From a virus (Duplodnaviria > Caudoviricetes), in the IMG/VR virus record IMGVR_UViG_3300047272_000342, positions 1-24,549 of that record: DNA of 24,549 bases, one strand, 5' to 3'. Within the stretch, counting starts at the first letter, position 1. Each line of letters opens with the position of its first letter. The notes beneath the pieces were generated by a model. It was not told the origin of the DNA and ran no database searches. It saw only the letters and a list, made by a program, of their open reading frames with translations. The position numbers and the translations under genes were made by a program. Below are positions 2,803-24,549 of the stretch, in pieces.

Positions 2803-3054
2803 ATGCGCGATTTAATTGATCAGTACAACATAGATATGCAGCAGGAGAATTTCGCAATGCTAGTTGCAGCGCGAGTTAACGACATTCTGGCTGGTACAGC
2901 TGTCACGCTTCACTACGAGCTAGTTGGCGGGATGATGTACACCAGAGAGCAGGAGACTCTACTGTTTGCAGATCTAATTGCCCGCGCAGTATGCGCAAAC
3001 TTAAACCGAGATGATCTAGAGACCCTAGAGACACTAGAAACCGCAGGAGAGTAA
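2803..3054 (+). CDS. Hypothetical protein
   Basis: 83-aa ORF with an upstream GGAGAGGA RBS. Its stop overlaps the katG start (TAATG). Confidence 0.65.
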   Translation: MRDLIDQYNIDMQQENFAMLVAARVNDILAGTAVTLHYELVGGMMYTREQETLLFADLIARAVCANLNRDDLETLETLETAGE

Positions 3055-5246
3055 TGAACGACGAAGCAACATGCCCAGTTCCTCACGGAGCTAGCAACTC
3101 GACTGGCACTGCCAACACATCTAAGTGGTGGCCAGACCAGCTAACGACCGACGCTCTAATCCACAACTCAGAGAAGAGCAACCCTTACTACGACGACTGG
3201 GACTACAAGTACGAGTCTGAGTTTGATGACCTAGATCTAGCTGAAGTTAAGGCTGAAATCACCAAGGTAATGAAGACCTCACACCCGATGTGGCCTGCTG
3301 ACTACGGACACTACGGTCCTTTCTTCATTCGTATGGCTTGGCACTCAGCTGGTACCTACCGCGTAAGCGATGGTCGCGGTGGTGCAGGTCAGGGTCTTCA
3401 GCGATTCGCTCCACTGAACTCATGGCCTGACAACGTAAACCTGGACAAGGCTCGTCGTTTGCTTTGGCCAGTAAAGCAGAAGTTTGGACGTAAGCTCTCA
3501 TGGGCTGACCTGATGATTCTTGCAGGTAACGTTGCACTCGAAGACATGGGCTTTAAGACTTTCGGCTTTGCTGGTGGTCGCACAGATGTTTGGGAACCCG
3601 ACAACACATACTGGGGCTCAGAGACCGAGTGGCTAGCAAACGGACGTTACGACGCAACTCGCGATGCAGGAACTCTAGAGAACCCGCTTGCAGCTGTACA
3701 GATGGGACTTATTTACGTAAACCCTGAAGGTCCAGATGGCAATCCAGACTTTATAGCTGCAGCAAAAGACATCCGCGAAACCTTCAAGCGCATGGCGATG
3801 AACGATGAGGAAACTGTTGCTCTTATTGCTGGTGGTCACGCTTTCGGTAAGACTCACGGTGCTCACGATGCTTCCTACCTAAAATGGGAGCCAGAGAACG
3901 CGCCTATCCAGTCTGCTGGACTAGGCTGGGCTAACACCAAGGGCAAGGGTCACTCAGAGGACACCATCTCCTCAGGTCTTGAAGTTACTTGGACTCCGAC
4001 TCCAACCAAGTGGGACAACAGCTACCTAGAGATGATCTACGGCTACGACAAGTGGGAGATTGAAGAATCTCCAGCAGGTGCTAAGCAGTGGAAGCCAGTT
4101 GCTGACGAGGTACACCTTGCTCCGCATGCTCACCTAGAGAACAAGTATGTCGAGATCCGCATGCTAACCACTGACCTAGCTCTGCGTTACGGCGATCCAG
4201 AGTACTACCGCATTTCACGCAAGTTCCTAGAGGACTTCGACTACTTCTCAGATGTATTTGCACGCGCATGGTTCAAGTTGACTCACCGCGACATGGGACC
4301 AAAGGCTCGTTACCACGGCTCGGAAGTTCCAGACGAGACTCTGCTTTGGCAGGACCCAATTTCTGGCCCTAAGCACACCGTGCTAACTACAACTCAGCGT
4401 TATATGCTGAAGGCTGGCATCCTGCAGGCAATTACCACCGATCCTTCTATTGCTACCAAGCTGATTAGAACTGCGTGGTCGTCTGCGTCAAGCTACCGAA
4501 ACTCAGACAAGCGCGGTGGAGCCAACGGTGCACGCGTCATCCTGAGACCTCAGATCAGCTGGATGTCTAATGATGCAGACGAGATCCTAAGCACTGTCAG
4601 CCTTCTCACCCGAATTGCTAAGAGTGCAGACATTCAGGTCTCTACGGCTGACTTGATTGTTATCGGTGGAGATGTAGCAATTGAACGGGCAGCACAGCTA
4701 GCTGGCGTCTCTCACGTCGAAGCCGCTTCGGATAACTGGCGTTCAGATGCAACTCAGGAAGAGACCGACGTTGAGTCTTTCGACTACCTGAAGCCACTTG
4801 CTGACGGATTCACCAACTGGATTCCAGAAGGAACTGAAGACATCGCAGAGCGTCTACTTCTAGAGAAGGCAGCCCTACTCGGCTTGACCCCTCCAGAGAT
4901 GACAGTTCTTGTTGGTGGTCTACGAGTTCTAGGAGTTACACACGGCAACACTAAGCACGGTGTTCTCACTGATACGCCTGGTGTTCTAGACAACTCCTAC
5001 TTCCGCAACCTATTGGATATCAATATTGCTTGGGCACCTAAGGCTGACCAGAAGGGCGTCTATGGCTCGCACTCCTACTTCAATGGAGAGCGTAAGTGGA
5101 CTGCAACCCGCGCTGACCTAGTCTTCGCATCAAACTCTGTATTGCGTGCCCTCGCCGAGGTTTACGCATCAGATGATGCAAAGGATAAGTTCGCCCAGGA
5201 CTTCCTGTGGGCATGGCACAAGGTCATGAACTCAGATAAGTTCTAA
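3054..5246 (+). CDS. katG: Catalase-peroxidase KatG
   Basis: 730 aa. Motifs: CPVPH N-terminus, WWP, RMAWHSAGTYR (distal Arg/Trp/His), GLIYVNPEG (adduct Tyr), RMAMNDEE (adduct Met), GGHAFGKTHG (proximal His), MLTTDLAL, and the C-terminal domain SDKRGGANGAR...WHKVMNSDKF. RBS AGGAG upstream. Confidence 0.97.
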   Translation: MNDEATCPVPHGASNSTGTANTSKWWPDQLTTDALIHNSEKSNPYYDDWDYKYESEFDDLDLAEVKAEITKVMKTSHPMWPADYGHYGPFFIRMAWHSAGTYRVSDGRGGAGQGLQRFAPLNSWPDNVNLDKARRLLWPVKQKFGRKLSWADLMILAGNVALEDMGFKTFGFAGGRTDVWEPDNTYWGSETEWLANGRYDATRDAGTLENPLAAVQMGLIYVNPEGPDGNPDFIAAAKDIRETFKRMAMNDEETVALIAGGHAFGKTHGAHDASYLKWEPENAPIQSAGLGWANTKGKGHSEDTISSGLEVTWTPTPTKWDNSYLEMIYGYDKWEIEESPAGAKQWKPVADEVHLAPHAHLENKYVEIRMLTTDLALRYGDPEYYRISRKFLEDFDYFSDVFARAWFKLTHRDMGPKARYHGSEVPDETLLWQDPISGPKHTVLTTTQRYMLKAGILQAITTDPSIATKLIRTAWSSASSYRNSDKRGGANGARVILRPQISWMSNDADEILSTVSLLTRIAKSADIQVSTADLIVIGGDVAIERAAQLAGVSHVEAASDNWRSDATQEETDVESFDYLKPLADGFTNWIPEGTEDIAERLLLEKAALLGLTPPEMTVLVGGLRVLGVTHGNTKHGVLTDTPGVLDNSYFRNLLDINIAWAPKADQKGVYGSHSYFNGERKWTATRADLVFASNSVLRALAEVYASDDAKDKFAQDFLWAWHKVMNSDKF

Positions 5247-5257
5247 TACATTGAACA

Positions 5258-5289
5258 CAGAGGCCCCTCGCGAAAGCGGGGGGTTTCTG
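5258..5289 (+). terminator. GC-rich stem-loop after katG (probable intrinsic terminator)
   Basis: CAGAGGCCCCTCGC-GAAA-GCGGGGGGTTTCTG forms 14 bp including 3 G-U pairs with a GNRA loop, 12 nt after the katG stop. The U-tract is short. Confidence 0.75.
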
Positions 5290-5296
5290 CTATGAT
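5288..5296 (+). promoter_or_regulatory. Extended -10 promoter for the heme oxygenase gene
   Basis: TGCTATGAT (TGn + TATGAT). RBS AAGGAG at 5320-5325. Confidence 0.55.
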
Positions 5297-5330
5297 AGAA
5301 TCGTAAACCCACAAAAAACAAGGAGAAATT

Positions 5331-5936
5331 ATGCTCTCTCAAGCCGTACGCGAAGCATCAAAAACTGCGCACGTTGCAGCCGAGCGTAGCCCTTTCATGA
5401 CTGCATTGATGAAGGGTGATGTTGGCTCTGACGCCTACCGTGACTACCTAACTCAGCTTGCTCCAATTTATGAAGCCCTTGAAGCATGGGACGACAAGCG
5501 TAACCCTTGGCCGCTATTTGACCGTCGTCTTGATCGATTTGAGCGCATCATCTGCGACATCGAATCTCTTGGTGGTTCCGCTCTCGTTTGCGATGCAACT
5601 CTGGAGTACGCCGATCACATTAAGTCCCTGGTTGCATCTAACGACTGGGTGCGGCTTCTCGCTCACCACTACACCCGCTACCTCGGTGACCTATCGGGCG
5701 GGCAGGCAATTGCTTCCTTAGTTACTCGTAACCTCATGATTCCGCCGAACTTCCTATCTTTCTATGAGTTCGACTGTATCGATGACAAGGTTCGCTATAA
5801 AGAGACTTACCGTGAGAATCTAGATACCCTGGTTCCAGTAGAAGACTACCAATTGTTCATCGATGAAGTAGTAGCCGCGTTTGGCTACAACCAGAGAATT
5901 TTCGATGCTCTTGCTAAGCGCTGGTTGACAATCTAA
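5331..5936 (+). CDS. hmuO: Heme oxygenase (biliverdin-producing, HmuO/HO-1 family)
   Basis: Proximal His in SKTAHVAAERSPF, the IYEALE helix, the signature HHYTRYLGDLSGGQ, FYEF, and FIDEVVAAFGYN. Confidence 0.93.
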   Translation: MLSQAVREASKTAHVAAERSPFMTALMKGDVGSDAYRDYLTQLAPIYEALEAWDDKRNPWPLFDRRLDRFERIICDIESLGGSALVCDATLEYADHIKSLVASNDWVRLLAHHYTRYLGDLSGGQAIASLVTRNLMIPPNFLSFYEFDCIDDKVRYKETYRENLDTLVPVEDYQLFIDEVVAAFGYNQRIFDALAKRWLTI

Positions 5937-8580: not shown

Positions 8581-10317
8581 TTGGGTATTTTCAAAAAGGA
8601 CAGCGGAAAGGCTAGAGAGTCTAGACCGAATCTACGCGCCTCTGCCCCAAAGAATGCAACGCGTGTTGCACCAGGAGTCTCTATAGACTCTTTCGGTATT
8701 GTTTACGCCGAGCCTCAGTCTTTCAACTCACCTCGTCCTATGACAGCTGCTGCTGCTCAAGTAAATCTTCAAGACAAGGGTGAAGCAGAACGCTTCAAGT
8801 CTCGTCGCCAGTCTGCTGACACCGCTTGGCAGTCAGAGGCCTGGGAATACTACGACGCAATCGGTGAAGTCAAGTACGCCTTTAATCTAGTTGCGTCTGT
8901 TGTGTCTCGTATTCGTCTTTATGCAGCTGCTATTGCAAACCCAAGCGAAGCACCTGCACCGATTGACTCTGTAGATAAGGTTGATTCTCGACTAGCTGCT
9001 GCCGCAGAGCGTGCTCTAACAAGACTAGACTCTGCTTTTGGTGGACAGGCTGGCCTTCTTAAGGATGCAGCGCTGAACTTGCAGGTGACTGGCGAGTGCT
9101 ATCTGGTTCAGGTTCCAGAGCGTCTTGGTTCTGGCTTACCAGAGTCATGGGACATCCGCTCTGTTGACGAACTCCAGGTCGACTCTAAGGGCAATTACGT
9201 CATCAACTCACGTCGTGACGTAAGCGGAAGCTCTTCTATGTTGTCGCAGGGTAACAAAGATGCACTTAAGCTACCTCAGAGTGCATTTGTTGGTCGCATC
9301 TGGCGTGCACACCCTCGCTACACTCAGGAGTCCGACTCTTCACTACGCGGTCTACTAGACCTCTGCGCCGAGCTTCTACTTCTAAACCGTACCTTCCGTG
9401 CAACTGCACGTTCACGCCTCAACGCTGGTGCTCTTTACTTACCAGATGGTCTATCAGTAGCTGCGTCTCCAGATCCAGACTACCCATACGACGAAGATGG
9501 CAACTACAACGAAGGCTTTACCGCCGAAGAAGCTGCCGATGACTTCGAAGACCAGCTCATCGATGCGATGACCACTCCGATTAAGGACGAGGACTCTGCT
9601 TCTGCTGTTGTTCCGCTAATCATTCGTGGTCCAGCAGAGCTTGGCGACAAGATCAAGCAGTTCAAGTTCGAGCGTTCATTCGACCCAGCCCTAGCTCAGC
9701 GTGCTGACCGAGTGCTAGAGCGCATCATGCAGGGTCTAGACGTCCCTAAAGACATCGTGACGGGTCTAGCGAACGTTAAATACTCTAACGCTCTTCAGAT
9801 CGATGAAAGCCTCTACAAGGCACACATCGAGCCTCTGATGCTGTTGATCGTTGACGCACTAACTGTTATGTACCTGCGTCCATACCTTATTGCAAATGGA
9901 TACACTCCAGACGAAGTAAAGAACGTTTGTATCTGGTACGACCCATCTCTAGTTGCTACCCGCAATGACCGTGCAGCCGATGCTGACATGGGCTTCGACA
10001 AGATGGCTGTGTCGTATGACGCATGGCGTCGCGCTCACGGATTCTCTGAAGCTGATGCTCCAGATGCCAAGGAGTACGCGCTACGTCTAATCGCAGCTAA
10101 GGGTATGGTTACTCCAGAAACTACAGAGGCTGTTCTTGCTGCAATTGCTCCAGACATTATGAATAGTGCTAGAGCGGCTTCGCAAGCTGCATCTCCTGCC
10201 CCTATTCCACCAGCAGTGGATGAGATTTTGCAGGAAGCAACTGGCGTACCAGCGCCTGGCGGTCAAACTGAAGAAACTACTCCCCCACCAGCACTAGCTG
10301 AGCCAGAGGAAGCGTAA
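8581..10317 (+). CDS. Portal protein
   Basis: 578 aa, two genes downstream of terL. Motifs WQSEAWEYYDAIGEV, GECYLV, RIWRAHP, RSRLNAG and SAVVPLIIRGP match actinophage cluster-B-like portals as I recall them. Pro/Glu-rich tail. Confidence 0.85.
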   Translation: MGIFKKDSGKARESRPNLRASAPKNATRVAPGVSIDSFGIVYAEPQSFNSPRPMTAAAAQVNLQDKGEAERFKSRRQSADTAWQSEAWEYYDAIGEVKYAFNLVASVVSRIRLYAAAIANPSEAPAPIDSVDKVDSRLAAAAERALTRLDSAFGGQAGLLKDAALNLQVTGECYLVQVPERLGSGLPESWDIRSVDELQVDSKGNYVINSRRDVSGSSSMLSQGNKDALKLPQSAFVGRIWRAHPRYTQESDSSLRGLLDLCAELLLLNRTFRATARSRLNAGALYLPDGLSVAASPDPDYPYDEDGNYNEGFTAEEAADDFEDQLIDAMTTPIKDEDSASAVVPLIIRGPAELGDKIKQFKFERSFDPALAQRADRVLERIMQGLDVPKDIVTGLANVKYSNALQIDESLYKAHIEPLMLLIVDALTVMYLRPYLIANGYTPDEVKNVCIWYDPSLVATRNDRAADADMGFDKMAVSYDAWRRAHGFSEADAPDAKEYALRLIAAKGMVTPETTEAVLAAIAPDIMNSARAASQAASPAPIPPAVDEILQEATGVPAPGGQTEETTPPPALAEPEEA

Positions 10318-10778
10318 TGGAACAGAACCTAACTAACGCCGATGTTGCGCAGAAGCTAGCCGTACTACTCTCGGATGTAGTTGTTGCTAAATTCATCATG
10401 CACGGATATCACTGGAATGTTTTAGGACCAGATTTTGGCGAGTACCACGAGTTCTTCGCAACTATCTACGAGGACTATGACGATTCAATTGATTTGATTG
10501 CAGAGAACATTCTCAAAGTTGGCTATGCTGCACCGTACTTACTCACAGACTTCCTAGAGATGTCATGCATCAAAGAGGAACGTCTAGGGGATGTCTCCTC
10601 TAGGGAGCTACTAGAGTCGGCACTTAGAGTTAATGCCCACCTGACCGAATGCCACTACTCAGCTTTTGCTGTAGCCAACGACGCCAACAAGCAGGGTTTA
10701 GCTGACTTTCTTGCTGGCAGAATTGACACTCTAGAAAAATGGAACTGGCAAATCAAGGCCTTCTTAGGAGTTCGCTAA
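10317..10778 (+). CDS. dps: Dps family mini-ferritin (DNA starvation/stationary phase protection protein)
   Basis: HGYHWNVLGPDFGEYHEFF...DLIAENI carries the ferroxidase-centre His/His/Asp/Glu. C-terminal LEKWNWQIKA. TAATG overlap with the portal stop. Confidence 0.92.
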   Translation: MEQNLTNADVAQKLAVLLSDVVVAKFIMHGYHWNVLGPDFGEYHEFFATIYEDYDDSIDLIAENILKVGYAAPYLLTDFLEMSCIKEERLGDVSSRELLESALRVNAHLTECHYSAFAVANDANKQGLADFLAGRIDTLEKWNWQIKAFLGVR

Positions 10779-12089: not shown

Positions 12090-14840
12090 ATGCTTGAAAC
12101 TTTTTCACTAACCGCTGACGGTAACTCAGCCGCCGCCCGTAGAGCCCGCGTAGCACTTCAGCCTCGTGACAAGTACGGACGTTGGGTTCCGACTGGTGCT
12201 AGCTTGTTTGCTGGCCTAAGCGCTCTTGGCTCTGTTGTTAACGTCCGAGGAAAAGCTATCGGTGGAACTAACAAAAAGGGCCAGATCAGAATGTTGGTCG
12301 GCAGCGGATACGAGAAGTACGGCATCAAGCCGAATACAGTTCTGACCGTTGACTCTAAGAACGGTGAGCTTTTCTCTGGTGCAGTTCTAGACAAGAACTT
12401 CCTGAAGAAGAAGGGAATTAACCCTGACCTTCGACACAGTCTTCCAAAGAATCTGGTAGACCAGCCTCAGACTCTTGACAAGATGGACCCTCAGCCAGCT
12501 GACGAGTTAGACATTGATCTAGCTACAAATGGTCTTAGCGATGACGAAGACAAAGATCTAAAGGCTGAACGCGACAAGGAGCCTCTAGCAACTCTTCCGC
12601 CAGCGATGGAAGTTGCAGAAGGCGAAGAAGTTGCAGACATCGTTGAGGCAGCTGAGCAGGGCAAGACTAAGCCAGCGTCTATTGGCGACCAGGATGCTGC
12701 CGACATTGCTGCATCTGATGCACTTGGAGAAATCTTCTATGGTGGAGATGCTCCTTCTGTAGAAGACCTAATCGACAAAGCTGCTACCCCTACACCTGCT
12801 GCTCAATCAGACGACACAGGTATTGCTGACTTAAAGCCAGGCGACATGGTGCTTCTACAGGGCCGTCCAATGAAGGTTGAGTCTGTGAAGCAGCGCGCGC
12901 TCTCTGGCGGCTGGGACCTAATGGTAGATGACGGCACTGGTCGAGGACCAGTAAACGTTGCAGACCCTAAGAGATTCCCTAATGGCATCCCAGCCAATGC
13001 AACTCTAAAGAAACTTAAGACAGGTGCTGCCCCTGCAGCTACAACTAAGCCTGCAGCTGTCAAAAAAGCTGACGATGCAGCGCCTGCTGCTCCAACCGCG
13101 CCTGCTGCTCCAACAGCACCTAAGCAGGTTACCAAGCCAGCTCCGAAGGCTAAAAAAGTTACCAAGCCAAAAGCAACTCTTCCTACTATCCCTAAGGGTA
13201 GAGAAGATGATGGCAAGGATGTTCCTCGCAATTTGAACTCTCAGGAGCAAATGCGTCAGACGCCTATTGCTCAGATGTTTGACGACAATGGTAACCCACT
13301 ATTTAAGCGCGATAACAAGGGCAAGCGAGTAGCTGCTCAAGATTCTAACGCTATCTACAATGCTCTCTTAGAGCAGAACCCTCAGGCTAAGGTAGACAAG
13401 TCGGGGCACATCATCCTAGAGCGTGGCACATTTACCGACAAGGATGGTAAGAAATATAAGTACGAAGTAGCGGTAGCTAAAACCCACGGCAACCAGTACA
13501 TGGAACGCTACACTTTCACCGATGAGGCGACTGGCGAAAAACAGTCCTTTTACCACTATGACTACAAGGACTCATTCGCAGCTATCTACGGCGAGGACAA
13601 TGGTGTAAACGTATTCCGCGACATCATCCTTGGCGAGCGTATGCCAGGCAAGCCAGGCTCTAAGATGACTCGAGAGAAAGAGTTCTATTTTGGAGACAAG
13701 TCCACTCTAGCTAAGCGATTGATGTTCTTCCGAGGTAAGAAGTCTACTGGCACAGAGATTACTGATGACATGCTTGATGATTCAAACTTCAAGCTGCTCA
13801 CCCCAGAAGAGGTCGTGCGTAAGTACCTCAATGGACGCGGTGAGAAACTTAACATGGCTGAAGGAAAAGCCAAGGGAACTAAGCTTCAAAGCTTTGTTGG
13901 CAGCGCATGGGAAGCTATCGAAGCCGATGACATGGAAGTATTCCAGCAGCGTATGGTCCAGCTACTTGGCCGCCTACCTGACAACGAGGAATCAAGATCT
14001 CTACTTGTCAACACTCTTAGGGACCAAATCAAGAGTAAGTTCAATGGAACACCTCAGGGGCGAAAGCTAGCACCTCTTGCTAATAACATTGAAAAAGCCA
14101 TCATGTCTGATGGTCTAGATCTGCGCGACATTCAGCGACGCCCCTGGGCCTCAAAGGATGGCAAAACAATTCTTAAGGTTGGCGACAAGGTTCGCTACTG
14201 GAACAACGTTGGTGAGTGGTCTATCGGTGAGGTAGTCAGACTTCGCGAACCTCGTAAGGGTTACGACGACATTGTTGCTGTTAAATTTGCTAACGGGACT
14301 CAGAACGTTCTACGCGCTAAGTACATGGATGTTCTAGGAGACGACCTAGACACCGAACTAAACTTGCACGACAAGGATAGCGATTCCACTGACTACATAG
14401 CATCTCTAAAGAATGATGCGCTCCGCGAAGCACGCGGTATCTTCCTAGACTTCGGCGACGCTCTGAAGCAAGAAGACGACAGTCAAAACGCACCTGCTGG
14501 CGCTCCAGTAAACACCACTAACCCTAACGCTGGGCAGCCTTACTTAGGTTCAGATGGTGTAGATGCAGATGCCCCTGCAGCCGATGTTGCAGATCAAGCA
14601 GATGCAGAGGAGCCTGCAACCGAGGCCGAACCAGAAGCACCAGCAGAAAGTAATATCTCTGACTTGGCGGCTGGAGATGCTTGGTATAGCGATGAAGGTG
14701 ACTACTTAGGAACTTTCGTTGAGGCGCAGGTTGTCGAGGCGGATGACGGCACACAAGCATGGGCTGTTATCTACCTGGATGAAGATGGTGATGAGCAGCT
14801 CGAGATCGTTAATCTCGAGGAGTCACGCCTCCCAAAATAG
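12090..14840 (+). CDS. Large head-associated multidomain protein (0-frame product; N-terminal part of a frameshift fusion)
   Basis: About 916 aa; ATG 12090 is better spaced from AAGGA than ATG 12084. Contains N-terminal QPRDKYGRW, three KOW/SH3-like barrels (DLKPGDMV, LKVGDKVRY, DLAAGDAW), and Ala/Pro/Lys and acidic linkers. Ends CTC CCA AAA TAG. Confidence 0.8.
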   Translation: MLETFSLTADGNSAAARRARVALQPRDKYGRWVPTGASLFAGLSALGSVVNVRGKAIGGTNKKGQIRMLVGSGYEKYGIKPNTVLTVDSKNGELFSGAVLDKNFLKKKGINPDLRHSLPKNLVDQPQTLDKMDPQPADELDIDLATNGLSDDEDKDLKAERDKEPLATLPPAMEVAEGEEVADIVEAAEQGKTKPASIGDQDAADIAASDALGEIFYGGDAPSVEDLIDKAATPTPAAQSDDTGIADLKPGDMVLLQGRPMKVESVKQRALSGGWDLMVDDGTGRGPVNVADPKRFPNGIPANATLKKLKTGAAPAATTKPAAVKKADDAAPAAPTAPAAPTAPKQVTKPAPKAKKVTKPKATLPTIPKGREDDGKDVPRNLNSQEQMRQTPIAQMFDDNGNPLFKRDNKGKRVAAQDSNAIYNALLEQNPQAKVDKSGHIILERGTFTDKDGKKYKYEVAVAKTHGNQYMERYTFTDEATGEKQSFYHYDYKDSFAAIYGEDNGVNVFRDIILGERMPGKPGSKMTREKEFYFGDKSTLAKRLMFFRGKKSTGTEITDDMLDDSNFKLLTPEEVVRKYLNGRGEKLNMAEGKAKGTKLQSFVGSAWEAIEADDMEVFQQRMVQLLGRLPDNEESRSLLVNTLRDQIKSKFNGTPQGRKLAPLANNIEKAIMSDGLDLRDIQRRPWASKDGKTILKVGDKVRYWNNVGEWSIGEVVRLREPRKGYDDIVAVKFANGTQNVLRAKYMDVLGDDLDTELNLHDKDSDSTDYIASLKNDALREARGIFLDFGDALKQEDDSQNAPAGAPVNTTNPNAGQPYLGSDGVDADAPAADVADQADAEEPATEAEPEAPAESNISDLAAGDAWYSDEGDYLGTFVEAQVVEADDGTQAWAVIYLDEDGDEQLEIVNLEESRLPK
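13080..13114 (+). repeat. 18-nt-period tandem repeat in a linker (APAAPT x2)
   Basis: GCGCCTGCTGCTCCAAC at 13080-13096 and 13098-13114. Confidence 0.8.
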
Positions 14841-14885
14841 ATAGGGCTGCAGTTGGCCCACAAGATGGGACACCAGCTACAGCCC
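14817..14885 (+). promoter_or_regulatory. Programmed -1 ribosomal frameshift signal 1 (SD-like, slippery heptamer, stem-loop)
   Basis: GAGGAG 14817-14822, in-phase C CCA AAA 14831-14837, a 6-nt spacer, then the stem GGGCTG-C-AGTTGG-CCCA / CAAGA / TGGG-ACA-CCAGCT-A-CAGCCC at 14844-14885. Confidence 0.85.
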
Positions 14886-17913: not shown

Positions 17914-20900
17914 GTGTTCAAATTCCTAGGGTTAACTGAGAATCTAGCGGTTTTCAGTGGCGATAAAGTTTATGCTGTTGTAGATACAGCTAAGAACCTG
18001 GTTCAAGACATGAGCCAGGTTGAAATTCAGGCGCTCATTGCATCTGCGTCTCTTGCAACTAACAATGTTGTAGTTTCTGATTCGGTCGTAGAGCTAGCTA
18101 AGGCTGCTTTAGTAGTGCCAGAGTCCACAATCACAGCATCTGGTGATCGTATGTACACGATTCCAGCTGGAGTTCAAGACGAGGCTGTTAGAGGTCTCGA
18201 ATGGCGCAAAGAAGAGAAGCGCGGCGGCACCCCTGTCGGTCTCAACACAGCTAGAACTCTAGCCGATGGTGGGCAAATAGGTATCAAAAAGATCCGCCAC
18301 ATCGCTAAGTACTTCCCTCGTCACGAAGTTGACAAAAAGGGCAAGGGCTGGGCACCTGGTGAAGACAACTTCCCGTCTAACGGCCGTATCGCTTGGGCTC
18401 TTTGGGGTGGTGACGCCGCTTGGCGTTGGGCTCGTGCAATCGTAGAGCGTGAGAACAAAAAAGCGCTCACATCTACTGGCTATGCTTTGCCAGGTTACGA
18501 AGATGATATCGAGACTTACGGGTATGGTACTGGCTACGATGCTGACCTAAACCCATTTAAAATTGCACATGAGCTTGACTTAAACGTTGGGCCAGAGTTT
18601 ATGGCGCGCGTGCGTTTAGATGGCTCTGGTATTGACCGTCTATACAAGATCGAGATCGATGGTCGCGTATATATCTGGGACGACTGCGGCTGGGATGACC
18701 TTGGCCACGTAGATGGTGACGTCTACACATACGACAAGGCTTTAGATGACCCGTATGATTTGACAGAGACAGATCACGTAATCATTGACCCTTCTGCTGC
18801 TGTAATTATTTCTGCCTTCTTCCAGGAGAGACCTAACCAGCCAGTACTTCTGATCGAAATTGATCCAGAAGAAACTATGCTTATGTCTGATGGCCTATAC
18901 GAAGAAGACTTCGACATGGTCGATAGAGTTATGACCGCTGCAGGCGAGCCAGTAACTAACCAAGACGGCAACTACACCCCTGACGAGCGCTCTGATAAAG
19001 CTGCTAAGCAGGTTAGAGATGCTTCTGGTAAGTTCGCTAAGGCTGGCTCCCGTGTAGTTGTCGCTGGCGACGAAAACCGTGGCTCTGGAGTGATTGAAAG
19101 CGTTGACAGTAGCACTGGCTTAGTCTCAGTTAAATTGGACAGCGGTAGCACTATCGAGGTAGATGCTAAATACACTCGTGCTGAAGAAGCTCCTACTACT
19201 GGACCTAGACGAGTTCCTACTATTCAGGCACCTCTAGACATGTCTGGTGTTCTTGGCGTACCTAGGACTTCAGGTACATCTAAGAAGGCGCAGCTTCCTG
19301 GCACTCTCCCAGTCATGACAAATGCAGACATCGCTCTGATGATCAGCGACTGGCCAGCGTACGTCGCAAAGCAGCGTGCTGCTTACAAGCTTCACAGTGA
19401 CACTGACCCTGGCATCAAAACCGTAACCAAGGGAAAACAGTCTACGGCTCCTGGTCTATCAGAGTACGACAAAAAGTACATGAAGAAGAACTACGACCTA
19501 GATATGTCGGCTGAGGGTATTACTGCTTCTGCAGAAGAGTCTGATGAAATCAACTCTCCTAAGGAGTCTGATGTACCAGCTAAGTACCTAGCTTTAGTGT
19601 CACCTGATGACAGCACTGCTGTTATGGACCTTGTTGCTATCGTTCCAGAGACAAAAACCACTACAGCTCCTGCTCTATATAGACGAGAAGCTGGTAAGTG
19701 GATTAAAGATGACCAGATCCTTATGGACCTCAAGTCAGCTACTCCTCCAGACGTAGTTGAGCTAGATGATCAGGCTATTCTAAATGATGTTCTCGTTCAG
19801 ACTGATTCTGCAATACAGGCGTCTGGCTACCTAGACTTTTCTATCTTCTGGGAGACTACCGTTGAGCCGATCTTGGCGGCTGGTGGACTAGACCGCAACC
19901 GCGAAAACGCTGAGGAGCTTCGTAAATACTGGACCCGCGGCAAGGGTGCACTAAAGATTCGTTGGGGAACCCCTGGCGACTGGACTCGTTGCGTTCGCAA
20001 TCTTTCAAAGTACATGGGCGCTCGCGCTAAGGGGTATTGCCAGCTTCGTCACAAGGAAGCAACTGGTGTCTACACTGGAAGTAAGCTAAACCCTGGGAAA
20101 AAGAGCCAGAGCTTCAGCACACTATTCCAGACTGAAGCAGACTTCGATAAAGTAATTACTCAGCGCGCAGTTCTAGCTGCTAGAGCAGCAGACGCACGTG
20201 AAAAGGTTGGACTAGTGGCAGGAGCCGTTAAGCCTACAGAGGGCGCTAAATTCCACATCCCTATGATCGTTCCAGAAGAGATGGAATCGGGAGATGGTCG
20301 TAAGTTCTCAAAGGATGCCATCACAACTAGAGAGCTACCACTGCCTCTTCTATGGCAGATTAAGACTGGTGCTGGGCACGACGGGTCTGTTGTAGTTGGT
20401 CGCATCGACTACATCGAAAGAATTGAAGGCGGAATGGGTAATGCCTATGGTGTTTTTGATACTGGACCTTATGGCCGTGAAGCTGAACGACTAGTTAAGC
20501 ACGGGTTCCTTCGTGGAGTTTCAGTAGACCTTGACCAGTTCGAGGCTAAAGAAGACAAGAGACCGACTGACGAAGCATCAGAAGACGATGGTCACATCGG
20601 TAAGGACAAACTTACTATCAATAAGGCTCGCATAATGGCTGCTACAATTGTAGCAAAGCCTGCATTCCAGGAATGCTCTATTTATCTCCAAAATTCAGGG
20701 GACCAGGAGGAAGAAATGACCCCAGAGGATGGCGTGTACGAGGAGTCTCTAGAAGACTTCAGCGACGTCGAACCTATCACAGCTTCTGGCTACCTTGCGT
20801 CAGAGATTCCAGTTGCTCCACCAGCTGAATGGTTCGAAAATCCAGGCCTAACTAAGGCCACACCACTTACCGTTGACAAAGATGGCCGTGTCTATGGACA

Positions 20901-22008
20901 CATTGCTGCTTGGCACGTAAGCCACATTGGACTTCCACGTTCAACCAAGCCACCACGTTCGCGCAGCAAGTACGCCTACTTCCACACTGGCGTGATCCAC
21001 ACTGCAGTTGGCACCGATGTTCCTGTTGGTCAGCTAACTCTAGCTGGAGGCCACGCTCCTCTAAATGCTGACGCTGCTTCTGCTGCAAAGCACTACGATG
21101 ACACTGCTTCCGCTGTAGCTGACGTCCACATGGGTGAAGACGAGTACGGCATTTGGTGTGCTGGCTCACTACGCCCAGGCGTAGATGAGTACCAGGTTCG
21201 CGCACTACGCGCTTCTGCTCCTTCAGGAGACTGGCGTCCAATCAATGGCTCACTTGAGCTAGTTGCAGTTTGCCAGGTTAACGTTCCAGGATTCCCTGTT
21301 GCTCGTGCGATGATCGCGTCTGGCAAGGTACTAGCACTAGTAGCCGCTGGTGCTAACTACATGGCAATGATGAAGAGTAACGTTGTTAGCTCTCTAGTTG
21401 CTAAGGCAGATCTTCTAGGTCAACTATCATCTAGCGCTCCTGACCTAAAGTCTCGCGTTAAGACTGCTGAACGCAAACTGCGTGAGGCAAACATAGAGGC
21501 ACTAACAGCTAGTGCTGCGGAGATGCGCGAGAAGGCTTTAACTGCTGCTGCTATTGCAGAGTTGGCAAAAATCTCTGAAGAAGAGCGTATGGATCTAGCT
21601 AAAGATGGCAAAGCAATGCCTGATGGTGCTTACCCTATCCGTGACACCGAAGACTTGAAGAATGCGATTCAGGCATACGGACGAGCAAAAGCATCTGAGC
21701 GTGCAGCAGTGCGTAAGCACATCATAAAGCAGGCTCGTAAGCTAAAGCAGTCTAGCCTCATCCCACAGCACTGGGTTAACGCAGACTCCATGGAAGCCGC
21801 ACAGCGTGTAGCTAGTATGCGAGCAGCAATTACAGCCGCTGCCGTTCGAGGCGAGAACCCTTGCTGGGACGGTTATGAAATGATTGGAATGAAAGAGCAG
21901 GACGGCAAGTCAGTTCCTAACTGCGTTCCTATCGATGCAGCATCTGCATCCGAGGAGGTGGTGGTTTCAGCCGCCCCAAAAGTGAGGAGATCTCCGACTC
22001 AGAGCTAA
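17914..22008 (+). CDS. Multidomain capsid maturation (prohead) protease polyprotein (0-frame product)
   Basis: 1364 aa upstream of the capsid gene. HK97-like protease domain at about 20245-20680 (ESGDGR, LPLLWQ, GHDG His 20377, GVSVD Ser 20521, VAKPAF). A second conserved domain has VYGHIAAW...HYDDT...SGDWR...VNVPGFP. Several small accessory modules. Confidence 0.85.
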   Translation: MFKFLGLTENLAVFSGDKVYAVVDTAKNLVQDMSQVEIQALIASASLATNNVVVSDSVVELAKAALVVPESTITASGDRMYTIPAGVQDEAVRGLEWRKEEKRGGTPVGLNTARTLADGGQIGIKKIRHIAKYFPRHEVDKKGKGWAPGEDNFPSNGRIAWALWGGDAAWRWARAIVERENKKALTSTGYALPGYEDDIETYGYGTGYDADLNPFKIAHELDLNVGPEFMARVRLDGSGIDRLYKIEIDGRVYIWDDCGWDDLGHVDGDVYTYDKALDDPYDLTETDHVIIDPSAAVIISAFFQERPNQPVLLIEIDPEETMLMSDGLYEEDFDMVDRVMTAAGEPVTNQDGNYTPDERSDKAAKQVRDASGKFAKAGSRVVVAGDENRGSGVIESVDSSTGLVSVKLDSGSTIEVDAKYTRAEEAPTTGPRRVPTIQAPLDMSGVLGVPRTSGTSKKAQLPGTLPVMTNADIALMISDWPAYVAKQRAAYKLHSDTDPGIKTVTKGKQSTAPGLSEYDKKYMKKNYDLDMSAEGITASAEESDEINSPKESDVPAKYLALVSPDDSTAVMDLVAIVPETKTTTAPALYRREAGKWIKDDQILMDLKSATPPDVVELDDQAILNDVLVQTDSAIQASGYLDFSIFWETTVEPILAAGGLDRNRENAEELRKYWTRGKGALKIRWGTPGDWTRCVRNLSKYMGARAKGYCQLRHKEATGVYTGSKLNPGKKSQSFSTLFQTEADFDKVITQRAVLAARAADAREKVGLVAGAVKPTEGAKFHIPMIVPEEMESGDGRKFSKDAITTRELPLPLLWQIKTGAGHDGSVVVGRIDYIERIEGGMGNAYGVFDTGPYGREAERLVKHGFLRGVSVDLDQFEAKEDKRPTDEASEDDGHIGKDKLTINKARIMAATIVAKPAFQECSIYLQNSGDQEEEMTPEDGVYEESLEDFSDVEPITASGYLASEIPVAPPAEWFENPGLTKATPLTVDKDGRVYGHIAAWHVSHIGLPRSTKPPRSRSKYAYFHTGVIHTAVGTDVPVGQLTLAGGHAPLNADAASAAKHYDDTASAVADVHMGEDEYGIWCAGSLRPGVDEYQVRALRASAPSGDWRPINGSLELVAVCQVNVPGFPVARAMIASGKVLALVAAGANYMAMMKSNVVSSLVAKADLLGQLSSSAPDLKSRVKTAERKLREANIEALTASAAEMREKALTAAAIAELAKISEEERMDLAKDGKAMPDGAYPIRDTEDLKNAIQAYGRAKASERAAVRKHIIKQARKLKQSSLIPQHWVNADSMEAAQRVASMRAAITAAAVRGENPCWDGYEMIGMKEQDGKSVPNCVPIDAASASEEVVVSAAPKVRRSPTQS
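21952..21981 (+). promoter_or_regulatory. Programmed -1 ribosomal frameshift signal 2
   Basis: GAGGAGGTG 21952-21960, 14 nt, then in-phase C CCA AAA 21975-21981. The 0-frame stop comes after 8 more codons. Confidence 0.8.
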
Positions 22009-22643
22009 AGAAGCTACGTCAGGCTAAAGAAGAGGCTGACAAGCAGACTGAAGAAGAGATCAAAGCCGCCGAAGAAGTAAAAGCTAACAAGGGCAAAACT
22101 GCTCCAGACGAGTATGACGAAGAGGGTCGCCAGAAGTATGTTTCTGGCATCAACCAGCCTCGTGATGCTAAGGGTAAGTACCGCAAGGTTCTTGCTCGTC
22201 TAAAGCAGGACCTTGGTGTAGCTGGACTAGCCAAAGCACTTAACAAAGCTGAAGACGCTGAAAACTTGGACTTTGCTGGAGACTACGAGGCATCAGCCGC
22301 GGCCAGCTCTAAGTTGCTGAAGATGATCGACAGGATCGACACCAAGGCTCTAAATCCAGAGGCTTTAGAGAATGTTAGACTTACTGCAGCTGAACTCGGA
22401 AAGACAATAGCTAACTTGCCATTGCCTTTCGGAGAGGACGCTCAGAAACTAAAATTTAGCGATCTTCCATCTGGACTGAAGGACCTCATCGAAACGATGA
22501 TTACTAAAGTCGAGCAGAAGATCGGTAAAAAGGATGCTGACATTGCTACGCAAAGTCTAAAATCCTACATGTCAGGTGCAGACCTGTATTCTCAGGGAGA
22601 AGTTCAATCTGAGATGAGTAAGCTGCTCCGACTCCTTACCTAA
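21981..22643 (+). CDS. -1 frame extension (220 aa) of the protease polyprotein
   Basis: Frame is open from 21921 to 22643. It reads SEEISDSELKKLRQAKEEADKQ...KYVSGINQPRDAKGKYRKVLARLKQDLG... and continues into the 22266 ORF. No start codon or RBS before TTG 22266. Confidence 0.8.
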   Translation, partial: SEEISDSELKKLRQAKEEADKQTEEEIKAAEEVKANKGKTAPDEYDEEGRQKYVSGINQPRDAKGKYRKVLARLKQDLGVAGLAKALNKAEDAENLDFAGDYEASAAASSKLLKMIDRIDTKALNPEALENVRLTAAELGKTIANLPLPFGEDAQKLKFSDLPSGLKDLIETMITKVEQKIGKKDADIATQSLKSYMSGADLYSQGEVQSEMSKLLRLLT

Positions 22644-22645
22644 AA

Positions 22646-22760
22646 AGTAAGGTAAAATTATCGTAGGTAGAGCGCCTCACGTATTGTTGCGTCGAGTCCC
22701 TCGGCCTTGACTGTAAATCAAGGGCAAATTGCCCAAACACTAACTGGCCTAGGAGGTACA
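22646..22760 (+). promoter_or_regulatory. Capsid gene promoter, structured 5' leader and RBS
   Basis: GG-TAAAAT (hexamer 22653-22658), hairpins at 22676-22696, 22705-22723 and 22722-22734, and SD AGGAGGT at 22751-22757. Confidence 0.55.
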
Positions 22761-24549
22761 GTGTACGACCAAATTAAAACTCAGCTAGATACTCTAGCCG
22801 AGCTAGGTGACGAACAAGTCGCCGAGCTTCAGGCAGAGATTATCTCGCAGTTTGAAATGGTTGAGGGTGAAGACCCGACTCCTGAGACAGTTGATGCTAT
22901 GACATTGTTAGCTGATTCTCTTGACATGGTTCGCGGCGAGCTTTCTCGCCGTGAGACAGCAGCCGCTGAACTTGCAGCGAAGGCTGCAGAAGCTGTTGCT
23001 CGTGTAAAGGGTGACGCTGACAGTGAGGGAGAAGAAATGGCTATTACTGAAGACGAGCCTGTAGTAGAGGAAACTCTAACAGAGGAAGCTCCAGCAGAAG
23101 ACGTAGTTCCAGCCGAAGAGGAAGCCCCAGCTGCGGAAGAAATTCCAGCAGAAGAGGAGACCACTGAGGAAGAGGCTACAGAAACCGAAGAAGAGGAAGA
23201 CAAAAAGGAGGAAGAAATGTCTACCGATGAAACAATTCAGGCATCTGCTTCTGACGAGTCAACCGCTGAGGTTGCTGCTGTCGCAGAAACTGTAGAAGAG
23301 ACCGCTGCTCCAGAGGCAGAGCTTTCAGCAACCGATGAGGTTGCAGAAGCTCCAGTCGAAGAAGCTGTCGTAGAAGCGCCAGTCGAGGCTGAAGCTGCAG
23401 TTGAAGAAACTGTAGTCGAAGCAGCCGAGGCTAGCGAAGCATCAACCGCTCAGGAAGACGGTTCTGAACTATCAACCACCACAGAGGAAGCCACTGAGCT
23501 TTCAACTGAAGTTACTGCAGAGGCAGTTGCTGAAGTTGAGACCGCTGCAGAGCTATCATCTGACGAAACTATTGAAACACCAACCGCTCTTTCGGAAGAA
23601 GAGCAGAATCAGGAGCAGGCAGTGACCGCTGCAGCAGAACAGCCTTTCGAGGCACCAGCTGACCGTCAGCCTGTAGTTCAGGAAATCGCTAACCCAGTGG
23701 CAATCACCGCTGGTGCAGACATCCCTGGTTACAGCGCGGGAAGCACCGTAAATGACCTAAACGAAGTTGCATCTCTTATGGAGAAGCGCCTTCACTCACT
23801 ACGCCGTGTTAACGGTGGCGACGGAGAGCAGCACATTGTTGCATCGTTCTCTACCTCATACTCTGAGGACCGCTTCCTAGGCACCGACGCTGAGGCTAAC
23901 ACCGCTAAGATCAACGCGAGCACCGCTCTTGTTGCATCTGGTGGCCACGCTGCTCCAGCTGAGGTTAAGTACGATATCTTCGGTATCGGCTCAACCACCA
24001 ACCGTCCAGTTCGTGACGCACTTCCTAAGTTCCAGGCAGACCGTGGCGGTATCCGCTTCGTAACCGCTCCTTCATTCGCAGCTGACACTTATGCTGACGC
24101 TGTTGGTGTATGGACCGCTGCAAACGACTCAGCTGAGACTCCTAGCCCATCGGCTAAGACCTCTCTAACTGTTTCTGCTGCTCAGGAGAACGTTGCTGTT
24201 ACTGACGCTGTAACCCTACAGCTACAGTTCGGTAACTTGATGACCCGTGCGTACCCAGAGCTAATCGCTCGCCACAACGAACTTGCTCTTGTACAGCACG
24301 CTCGTGAGGCAGAAGTTAACCTTCTATCGAAGATTAGCGCAGCTTCAACTGCAGTTACTTCTGGAACCCTAATCGGTTTTGGTCGCGACTTCTTGGTATC
24401 TGTACGCAAGGCAGCTGTTGCTTACCGTTCACGTCACCGCATTGCTCCAACTACCAAGTTGACTGCAATCGTTCCTGACTGGATCTTCGATGCAATGGCT
24501 TCTGACCTAGCAATCGCGATGCCTGGCGACAACACCATTGGTGTTAGCA
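22761..24549 (+). CDS. Major capsid protein with a long acidic N-terminal scaffold-like region (partial, runs off the window)
   Basis: GTG 22761 after AGGAGGT, with 596 stop-free codons to the window end. MYDQIKTQLDTLAEL..., an E/A/T-rich tract, ITAGADIPG, then ALVASGGHAAPAEVKYDIFG...RPVRDALPKFQADRGGIRF...FGNLMTRAYPE. This resembles cluster-B-type actinophage capsid proteins. Confidence 0.88.
   Translation, partial: MYDQIKTQLDTLAELGDEQVAELQAEIISQFEMVEGEDPTPETVDAMTLLADSLDMVRGELSRRETAAAELAAKAAEAVARVKGDADSEGEEMAITEDEPVVEETLTEEAPAEDVVPAEEEAPAAEEIPAEEETTEEEATETEEEEDKKEEEMSTDETIQASASDESTAEVAAVAETVEETAAPEAELSATDEVAEAPVEEAVVEAPVEAEAAVEETVVEAAEASEASTAQEDGSELSTTTEEATELSTEVTAEAVAEVETAAELSSDETIETPTALSEEEQNQEQAVTAAAEQPFEAPADRQPVVQEIANPVAITAGADIPGYSAGSTVNDLNEVASLMEKRLHSLRRVNGGDGEQHIVASFSTSYSEDRFLGTDAEANTAKINASTALVASGGHAAPAEVKYDIFGIGSTTNRPVRDALPKFQADRGGIRFVTAPSFAADTYADAVGVWTAANDSAETPSPSAKTSLTVSAAQENVAVTDAVTLQLQFGNLMTRAYPELIARHNELALVQHAREAEVNLLSKISAASTAVTSGTLIGFGRDFLVSVRKAAVAYRSRHRIAPTTKLTAIVPDWIFDAMASDLAIAMPGDNTIGVS

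Follow-up and report, generated by a model that had tools for sequence, protein, structure and literature searches.

The protease polyprotein gene of an uncultured freshwater phage with actinobacterial affinities is predicted to carry a programmed -1 ribosomal frameshift site near its 3' end. This reading, which rests on comparative sequence evidence, is given a probability of about 80%. The slippery heptamer, C CCA AAA, lies on the + strand at 21975..21981 of the window (the whole stretch of 24,549 nucleotides that was analysed) and is in phase with an open reading frame (ORF) at 17914-22008. A frameshift at this position had been proposed in a preliminary description of the DNA, and the proposal is supported by the presence of the break in several strains, by selection on the -1 frame, and by codon-level conservation. 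The underlying measurements are reproduced from the sequence: CCCAAAA at 21975-21981 divides as C CCA AAA in the 1364-aa ORF, the -1 frame is open from 21921 to 22643 (240 codons), 95 codons separate the shift from TTG 22266, and the predicted products are 1364 aa and 1576 aa. As had also been noted, the same heptamer occurs in equal phase at both gene ends. CCCAAAA is found twice on the + strand, at 14831 (site 1) and 21975 (site 2), 3 and 11 codons from the ORF ends, and a long -1 frame is open at both.

The window covers a packaging and head region with terminase, portal, two large ORFs, the protease polyprotein, and the major head gene. Metagenome runs that contain the window sequence are freshwater, aquatic, or estuary samples. 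Judged by the downstream domain, the cultured phages closest to it comprise Actinomycetia phage DSL-LC01 together with large Microbacterium phages (8 records), and the protease region has matches in 875 phage records, mostly of Actinobacteria. The polyprotein ORF (17914..22008, + strand; PHROG 859/21470/18402) lies between the portal and capsid genes. The next ORF encodes the major head protein (PHROG 777). A homologous protease region is shared with relatives annotated as capsid maturation protease or MuF-like fusion genes. Within it, a putative prohead serine protease-like domain is encoded at 20248..20748 (+ strand), as suggested by alignment and Pfam Peptidase_S78. Its H44 and S92 are invariant in 44/44 aligned sequences, and by analogy with the Peptidase_S78 family they are presumably the catalytic residues. 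The Peptidase_S78 match to the window domain has an E-value of 0.0017 and a score of 18.9 bits, below the curated cut-off of 21. Matches at E<=0.5 are present in 42/44 family members (best member 3.2e-05), and the domain has no PDB sequence match.

Iron and oxidative-stress genes are present within the packaging region (3054-5936 and 10317-10778). This region contains a ferritin/Dps-like gene (Pfam E 8.7e-17), a 730-aa ORF that is presumably catalase-peroxidase-like, and a 201-aa ORF that we assume to be heme-oxygenase-like, the last two by sequence features. A short Cys-containing segment, NPCWDGY...PNCVP (PHROG 36547/9737), is inserted at 21855-21930, just ahead of site 2, and is missing from the linkers of most of the relatives listed.

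The 5' flank of site 2 contains the purine element GAGGAGGTG at 21952-21960, 14 nt upstream of the heptamer as previously described. It begins an internal Shine-Dalgarno-like element, GAGGAGGTGGTGG (21952..21964, + strand, duplex energy -13.8), which is a predicted 5' stimulator. The spacing of 14 nt is inside the range of 9-14 nt given for 5' Shine-Dalgarno stimulators of -1 frameshifting in the available text of PMC5009743. Codons for V-S-A-A at 21964..21975 (+ strand), directly before Pro-Lys, match a putative protease cut motif identified by motif counts, at which cleavage may occur. The 0-frame stop, TAA, is at 22006..22008 (+ strand), 8 codons past the heptamer, and is at an equal distance in two related loci, L021 and L023. 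On the 3' side, GGAGATCTCC at 21986-21995 had been described as a weak hairpin, but it has a 2-nt loop and folds no better than shuffled sequences. No 3' stem-loop is found in the 61 nt past the heptamer (z -0.37; 71/200 shuffles are as good), which argues for no 3' stimulator at site 2 rather than a weak one. Frameshift efficiency at site 2 may be low because this structure is missing. No promoter-like site is found near the junction.

The frame break at site 2 is genuine and is not a sequencing error. Eight metagenome runs were compared, at the level of contigs rather than raw reads. Contigs that bridge site 2 with 0 gaps occur in 4/8 runs, from four studies not marked as a possible source of the window. 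These are from runs X5 (20669-23500, 54 substitutions), X8 (21850-22473, 16 substitutions), X15 (21908-22154, 0 substitutions), and X4 (21933-22125, 1 substitution). No bridging piece is present for X1, X3, X10, and X19 among the matches listed, and no indel at site 2 is listed in any of the 8 runs. In X19, the one RNA run compared, a contig begins at 21982 and does not bridge the site. An assembly error in a homopolymer, with a continuous gene in reality, is consistent with the continuity of 73/80 related loci and with the C4A4 run at site 2. However, the gap-free contigs come from four other studies, the missing base is 3' of the C4A4 run and outside it, and L021 and L023 contain the identical break. 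Such an error is extremely improbable, and the preliminary view that the break is real is confirmed.

The -1 frame extension (21981..22643, + strand) encodes 220 aa (24.2 kDa) and is predicted to be all-helical (model pLDDT 80). The strain differences tested within it are synonymous. Twenty substitution rows fall in the extension; the 12 from long near-identical contigs were tested and all 12 are synonymous, 8 of these ahead of TTG 22266, and the other 8, which come from short or divergent contigs, were omitted. Between the extensions of L021 and L023, near-identical in protein, 33 codons differ synonymously and 5 non-synonymously. Purifying selection thus acts on the -1 frame, which is a working coding sequence.

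No usable start is found in the -1 frame. TTG 22266 is the first ordinary in-frame start and has no ribosome-binding site: its rRNA pairing energy is +0.3, compared with -1.9 to -11.1 in 9/10 other starts and +1.5 in the tenth. It also sits 37 codons past a conserved QPRD tag. The preliminary description had named an independent start as an explanation of the downstream protein that would count against a frameshift. Because no ribosome-binding site precedes TTG 22266 and the invariant tag is upstream of it, a restart there does not account for the 95 conserved codons. The downstream domain could still be encoded separately and be initiated independently, at TTG 22266 or a near-cognate codon, and the heptamer be a relic. 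Separate versions do exist: DSL-LC01 also has the domain as a separate gene, L063 and L078 have separate genes with their own starts, and there are many further separate domain proteins of 175-188 aa. These known versions begin ahead of the QPRD tag, unlike TTG 22266, and the 95 codons before TTG 22266 vary only synonymously between strains. The sole near-cognate codon next to a purine run, ATC 21990, adjoins GAGGAG without a spacer. A separate gene is consequently regarded as quite unlikely.

The modelled extension consists of a charged helix, the QPRD tag, a four-helix bundle, and three further helices (pLDDT 80). This agrees with the charged helical segment and QPRDAKGKY that had been described, the helix being predicted and QPRDAKGKY beginning at 22155. 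The tag occupies 22155..22181 (+ strand), and its residues Q60, P61, R62, D63, and G66 are invariant in 83 aligned sequences. The related motif Q-x-R-D-x-x-G-[RK]-[FWY] has three copies in the window (12159, 19009, and 22155), each in a large head-region protein, and a six-frame translation of the window contains no other copy. It is a candidate packaging tag. The extension has a sub-threshold match only in Pfam, no match in PHROGs or among PDB sequences, and no usable match in the ESM Atlas. A Foldseek search of the model against PDB and viral models returns nothing at E<=0.001. In a wider structural search, which barely covered residues 153-221, residues of about 61-148 match four-helix bundles from numerous unrelated structures, with a best Z of 10.7. 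Matches to such generic bundles indicate no function. The extension is a probable head protein.

The motif [LIVM][TVSI]A[ASG] occurs 13 times in the protease ORF, compared with 2.4 in shuffled sequences, and one copy is at residue 1351. The capsid protein contains 6 copies, compared with 1.8, and other ORFs contain 0-3. Since a predicted cut motif lies directly before the heptamer, the extension may be released rather than kept on the protease. Stand-alone versions of the domain often retain an EAV-x-AA leader. The odds are about even that in each of the three arrangements (fused, shifted, and separate) the domain is released by cleavage and packaged, with the gene arrangement setting its dose.

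Among 80 related loci, the domain is in frame with the protease in 73, in the -1 arrangement in 2, and a separate gene in 3; 2 are uninformative because the upstream part is missing. The two -1 loci, L021 and L023, have the window-type arrangement with an identical heptamer and a stop 8 codons on. L063, L078, and L079 had been candidates for the out-of-frame state and were rejected, as L063 and L078 have their own starts and L079 is judged alike. In L025 and L032, near 8863, a stop directly followed by ATG splits the protease gene just past the protease domain. These two loci, whose in-frame stop is far upstream and within the protease region, were excluded from one of the alignments. A different break interrupts the protease gene of DSL-LC01 at an earlier point.

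Compared with fused genes, the window has one base fewer just 3' of the heptamer (GT GAG vs GTA/GCC/GAC GAG). In a quick tree of 49 rows, the shifted genes are nested among fused relatives and the window is apart from L021 and L023. A single shifted clade is rejected by an AU test (p 0.021) on 19 rows under a simpler model that gives some false rejections. As the window and L021/L023 do not form one clade in these analyses, the shifted state probably arose twice or moved by recombination. The nesting of shifted genes in fused ones suggests that the extension state is derived, and the extension polarity is a rare and probably derived state. Continuity in close homologues had been named as a result that would count against the frameshift. 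The continuity itself is found (73/80 loci), but the frameshift is not refuted by it, because the fused genes keep in-linker heptamers far above chance.

Fifty distinct fused genes, de-duplicated from 79, were examined in a linker of the 70 codons before the domain. The enrichments reported here are to be read with a linker length fixed after the first sites were seen and with relatives that share ancestry and are not independent. The linkers contain 12 C CCA AAR (0.38 expected from the rest of the gene), 12 G GGA AAR (0.60 expected), and 9 A AAA AAR (0.87 expected). T TTA AAR is not enriched in the 50 linkers (1 vs 0.43 expected). An in-phase linker heptamer is present in 30/50 genes, compared with 7.2 on average and at most 18 in 1000 rounds of synonymous resampling. 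In linkers, CCCAAAA (12/12) and GGGAAAA (10/10) are always in X XXY YYZ phase, compared with 3/9 and 4/12 elsewhere. The A-run heptamers are a weaker class, with 9 in phase and 6 out of phase. Pairing to rRNA upstream of linker CCCAAAA and GGGAAAA has a median of -6.7, compared with a background of -2.7. Hairpins 3' of the site are predicted in some relatives (L110 -21.6, L108 -14.1).

Constraint is also apparent at the level of codons. Ten heptamer-bearing lineages, with fourfold sites 36-52% identical, keep GTG GT(G/T)...G(C/G)C CCA AAA. The Val-Val pair begins with GTG in 10/10 of these lineages, and GTGGTG is used in 0/40 Val-Val pairs elsewhere; x-Pro-Lys elsewhere in these genes is encoded with CCCAAAA in 0/21 cases. 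Because the lineages were chosen for the heptamer, only the Val-Val count is unbiased. Val is encoded by GTG in 11% of cases and Lys by AAA in 30%. Conservation of the heptamer in homologues, which had been suggested as a check, is thus found at the codon level and as a site in 30/50 fused genes. The remaining 20 have no C/A/G-type linker heptamer, and any perfect X XXY YYZ is present in 1 of those 20, so the two-product scheme is not universal. In L013, L016, L025, L034, and L042, x-Pro-Lys is present at or near the joint without a heptamer.

In fused genes with a site, the -1 frame stops within 1-14 codons. The site is present in 6/6 cultured Microbacterium phage records (L107-L112), where the -1 stop follows within 1-5 codons. 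These six sites are 12-14 codons before the domain; five are C CCA AAA and one is A AAA AAA. Microbacterium foliorum phages A3Wally, Zooman, and Big4 have predicted truncating sites. In L107-L112, the predicted truncating site is inside a 1534-1552-aa protease gene and is unmarked in the feature tables shown.

The site is most likely a conserved -1 ribosomal frameshift, and the simplest account is that the frameshift is older than the frame break. A recent single-base loss could instead have inactivated the domain, leaving a pseudogene tail in which the heptamer is incidental or a leaky rescue. The shifted state is indeed rare (2/80 loci and the window) and nested in fused relatives, and 20/50 fused genes are without a site. 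Against this, strains with a shared break differ synonymously throughout the extension, the break is at the identical base in lineages with fourfold sites 44% identical, and fused genes show constraint on the heptamer at the level of codons. Inactivation is given little credence, on a par with a separate gene. RNA polymerase slippage on the C/A runs, adding a base and fusing the frames in place of ribosomal slippage, is less credible still and is considered very unlikely. Some relatives have A7 runs at equivalent sites, and slippage of this kind is the route used by T. thermophilus dnaX according to the available text of PMC5009743. The window has only C4A4, however, and CCCAAAA and GGGAAAA are strictly codon-phased (22/22) with Shine-Dalgarno-like 5' elements.

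Site 1 (14831..14885, + strand) comprises C CCA AAA, TAG, and a strong hairpin (z -3.86 vs shuffles), and its -1 frame is open for 713 codons to 16978. By these sequence features it is a textbook frameshift cassette, and it is kept in relatives. Among 17 related loci with the gene start, a count that omits L081 as a repeat of L021, 6 genes end in C CCA AAA and a stop and 6 in an A-run heptamer. In these 12 the -1 frame extends for 262-887 codons; the other 5/17 are longer genes without the heptamer.

A pattern scan matched two unrelated portal-MuF fusion genes on GC-rich phage contigs (L085 and L097), and a narrower scan found only the L085 contig. Relatives of the L085 gene (L114-L192; 79 loci, 70 distinct) were then surveyed. 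C CCA AAA is in phase at the junction in 26/26 complete in-frame portal-MuF ORFs, with a -1 stop within 1-48 codons, and in 1/3 cut ORFs. The junction heptamer is the sole in-phase copy in 23,276 codons of 69% G+C. MuF is in the -1 frame in L190 and L184, and L172 has a 129-codon -1 extension. As the query was picked for having the site, these counts represent one family only. They suggest that frameshift sites of this kind also occur outside the protease gene.

Most known phage frameshifts affect genes for tail chaperones, capsid proteins, or tail proteins. The frameshift of Lactobacillus phage A2 reportedly uses CCCAAAA. The same heptamer is named for the major head gene of Lactobacillus phage BH1 in the available text of PMC6950654. 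As far as these systems are described there, the window resembles A2-type capsid and tail frameshifts in having this heptamer shortly before a virion gene ends, a C-terminal extension, and two sites per structural region. It differs from the A2/T3 type in that the gene encodes a maturation protease polyprotein rather than a major capsid or tail protein and the extension is modelled as all-helical (pLDDT 80) rather than Ig-like beta, and from the A2 type in that the host group is Actinobacteria. The tail assembly chaperone G/GT, common in actinobacteriophages, uses a -1 slip to set a two-protein ratio (PMC10885494, available text). A slip at site 2 would likewise set the ratio of two assembly proteins, but in a head module between portal and capsid genes and not directly upstream of the tape measure. 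For actinobacteriophage head genes, the available text of PMC7302621 describes fusion and fission; each fusion is presented there as a single ORF, and tail chaperones are the only case in which it mentions frameshifts. The literature searched, which was without subscription papers and larger supplements, contained no report of a frameshift on a gene for a maturation protease or a portal-MuF protein.

The closest parallel outside phages is dnaX. In E. coli, a -1 frameshift yields the short and long forms gamma and tau, and in some bacteria the polarity is the opposite, with the long form depending on the shift; C_CCA_AAG is highly shift-prone in E. coli (all PMC5009743, available text). Features of dnaX-type sites found at site 2 are an in-phase heptamer in a frame overlap, conservation beyond protein constraint, and the 5' element spacing. 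To the extent covered by that text, the two systems share an X XXA AAR heptamer, an internal Shine-Dalgarno 5' element, and, in fused relatives, a -1 stop soon after. They differ in that the site described here is in a phage head gene, has C CCA AAA in place of A AAA AAG, and has no 3' stem-loop at site 2. Also unlike dnaX, one phage family combines heptamers of three types with both polarities and a split-gene state.

The proposed mechanism is tandem slippage of tRNA-Pro and tRNA-Lys (CCA AAA to CCC AAA) in a fraction of ribosomes, helped by rRNA pairing 5' of the heptamer. Most ribosomes would stop 8 codons later and yield 1364 aa, and a minority would yield 1576 aa. The added part would be the conserved 220-residue helical domain, which is predicted to be cut free by the protease. 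Two further steps are more tentative and are suggested by motifs, namely cutting at V-S-A-A just ahead of the heptamer and packaging of the domain via the QPRD tag. The site would thereby set the dose of a probable head protein per protease. In the fused arrangement, a slip would truncate the product and give a short form without the domain. Since such a slip meets a stop after 1-14 codons, the product ratio would be reversed relative to the window. If a single base immediately 3' of the heptamer is lost, the fused state becomes the shifted one; with that base missing in the window, the short form would be made by default and the long form only after a slip. The polarity of the site has probably flipped in this way, from truncating in most relatives to extending here, and it probably tunes the dose of a helical head protein.

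A broader generalization is marginally favoured, namely that a portable -1 cassette is a general dose control in actinobacterial phage head polyproteins, situated at joints between core protein and passenger, where one base flips the passenger between majority and minority. If so, many annotated 'fusions' (protease-tail domain, portal-MuF) would make two proteins. The portal-MuF sites, if true, predict free portal and portal-MuF from one gene, and the cassette would explain how a portal ring is built from a portal-MuF fusion with few MuF copies. Truncating sites within intact ORFs escape annotation. Because sites are predicted in cultured Microbacterium foliorum phages, the claim is testable at the bench. 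The fused, shifted, and split genes would form a natural series for the evolution of head protein stoichiometry.
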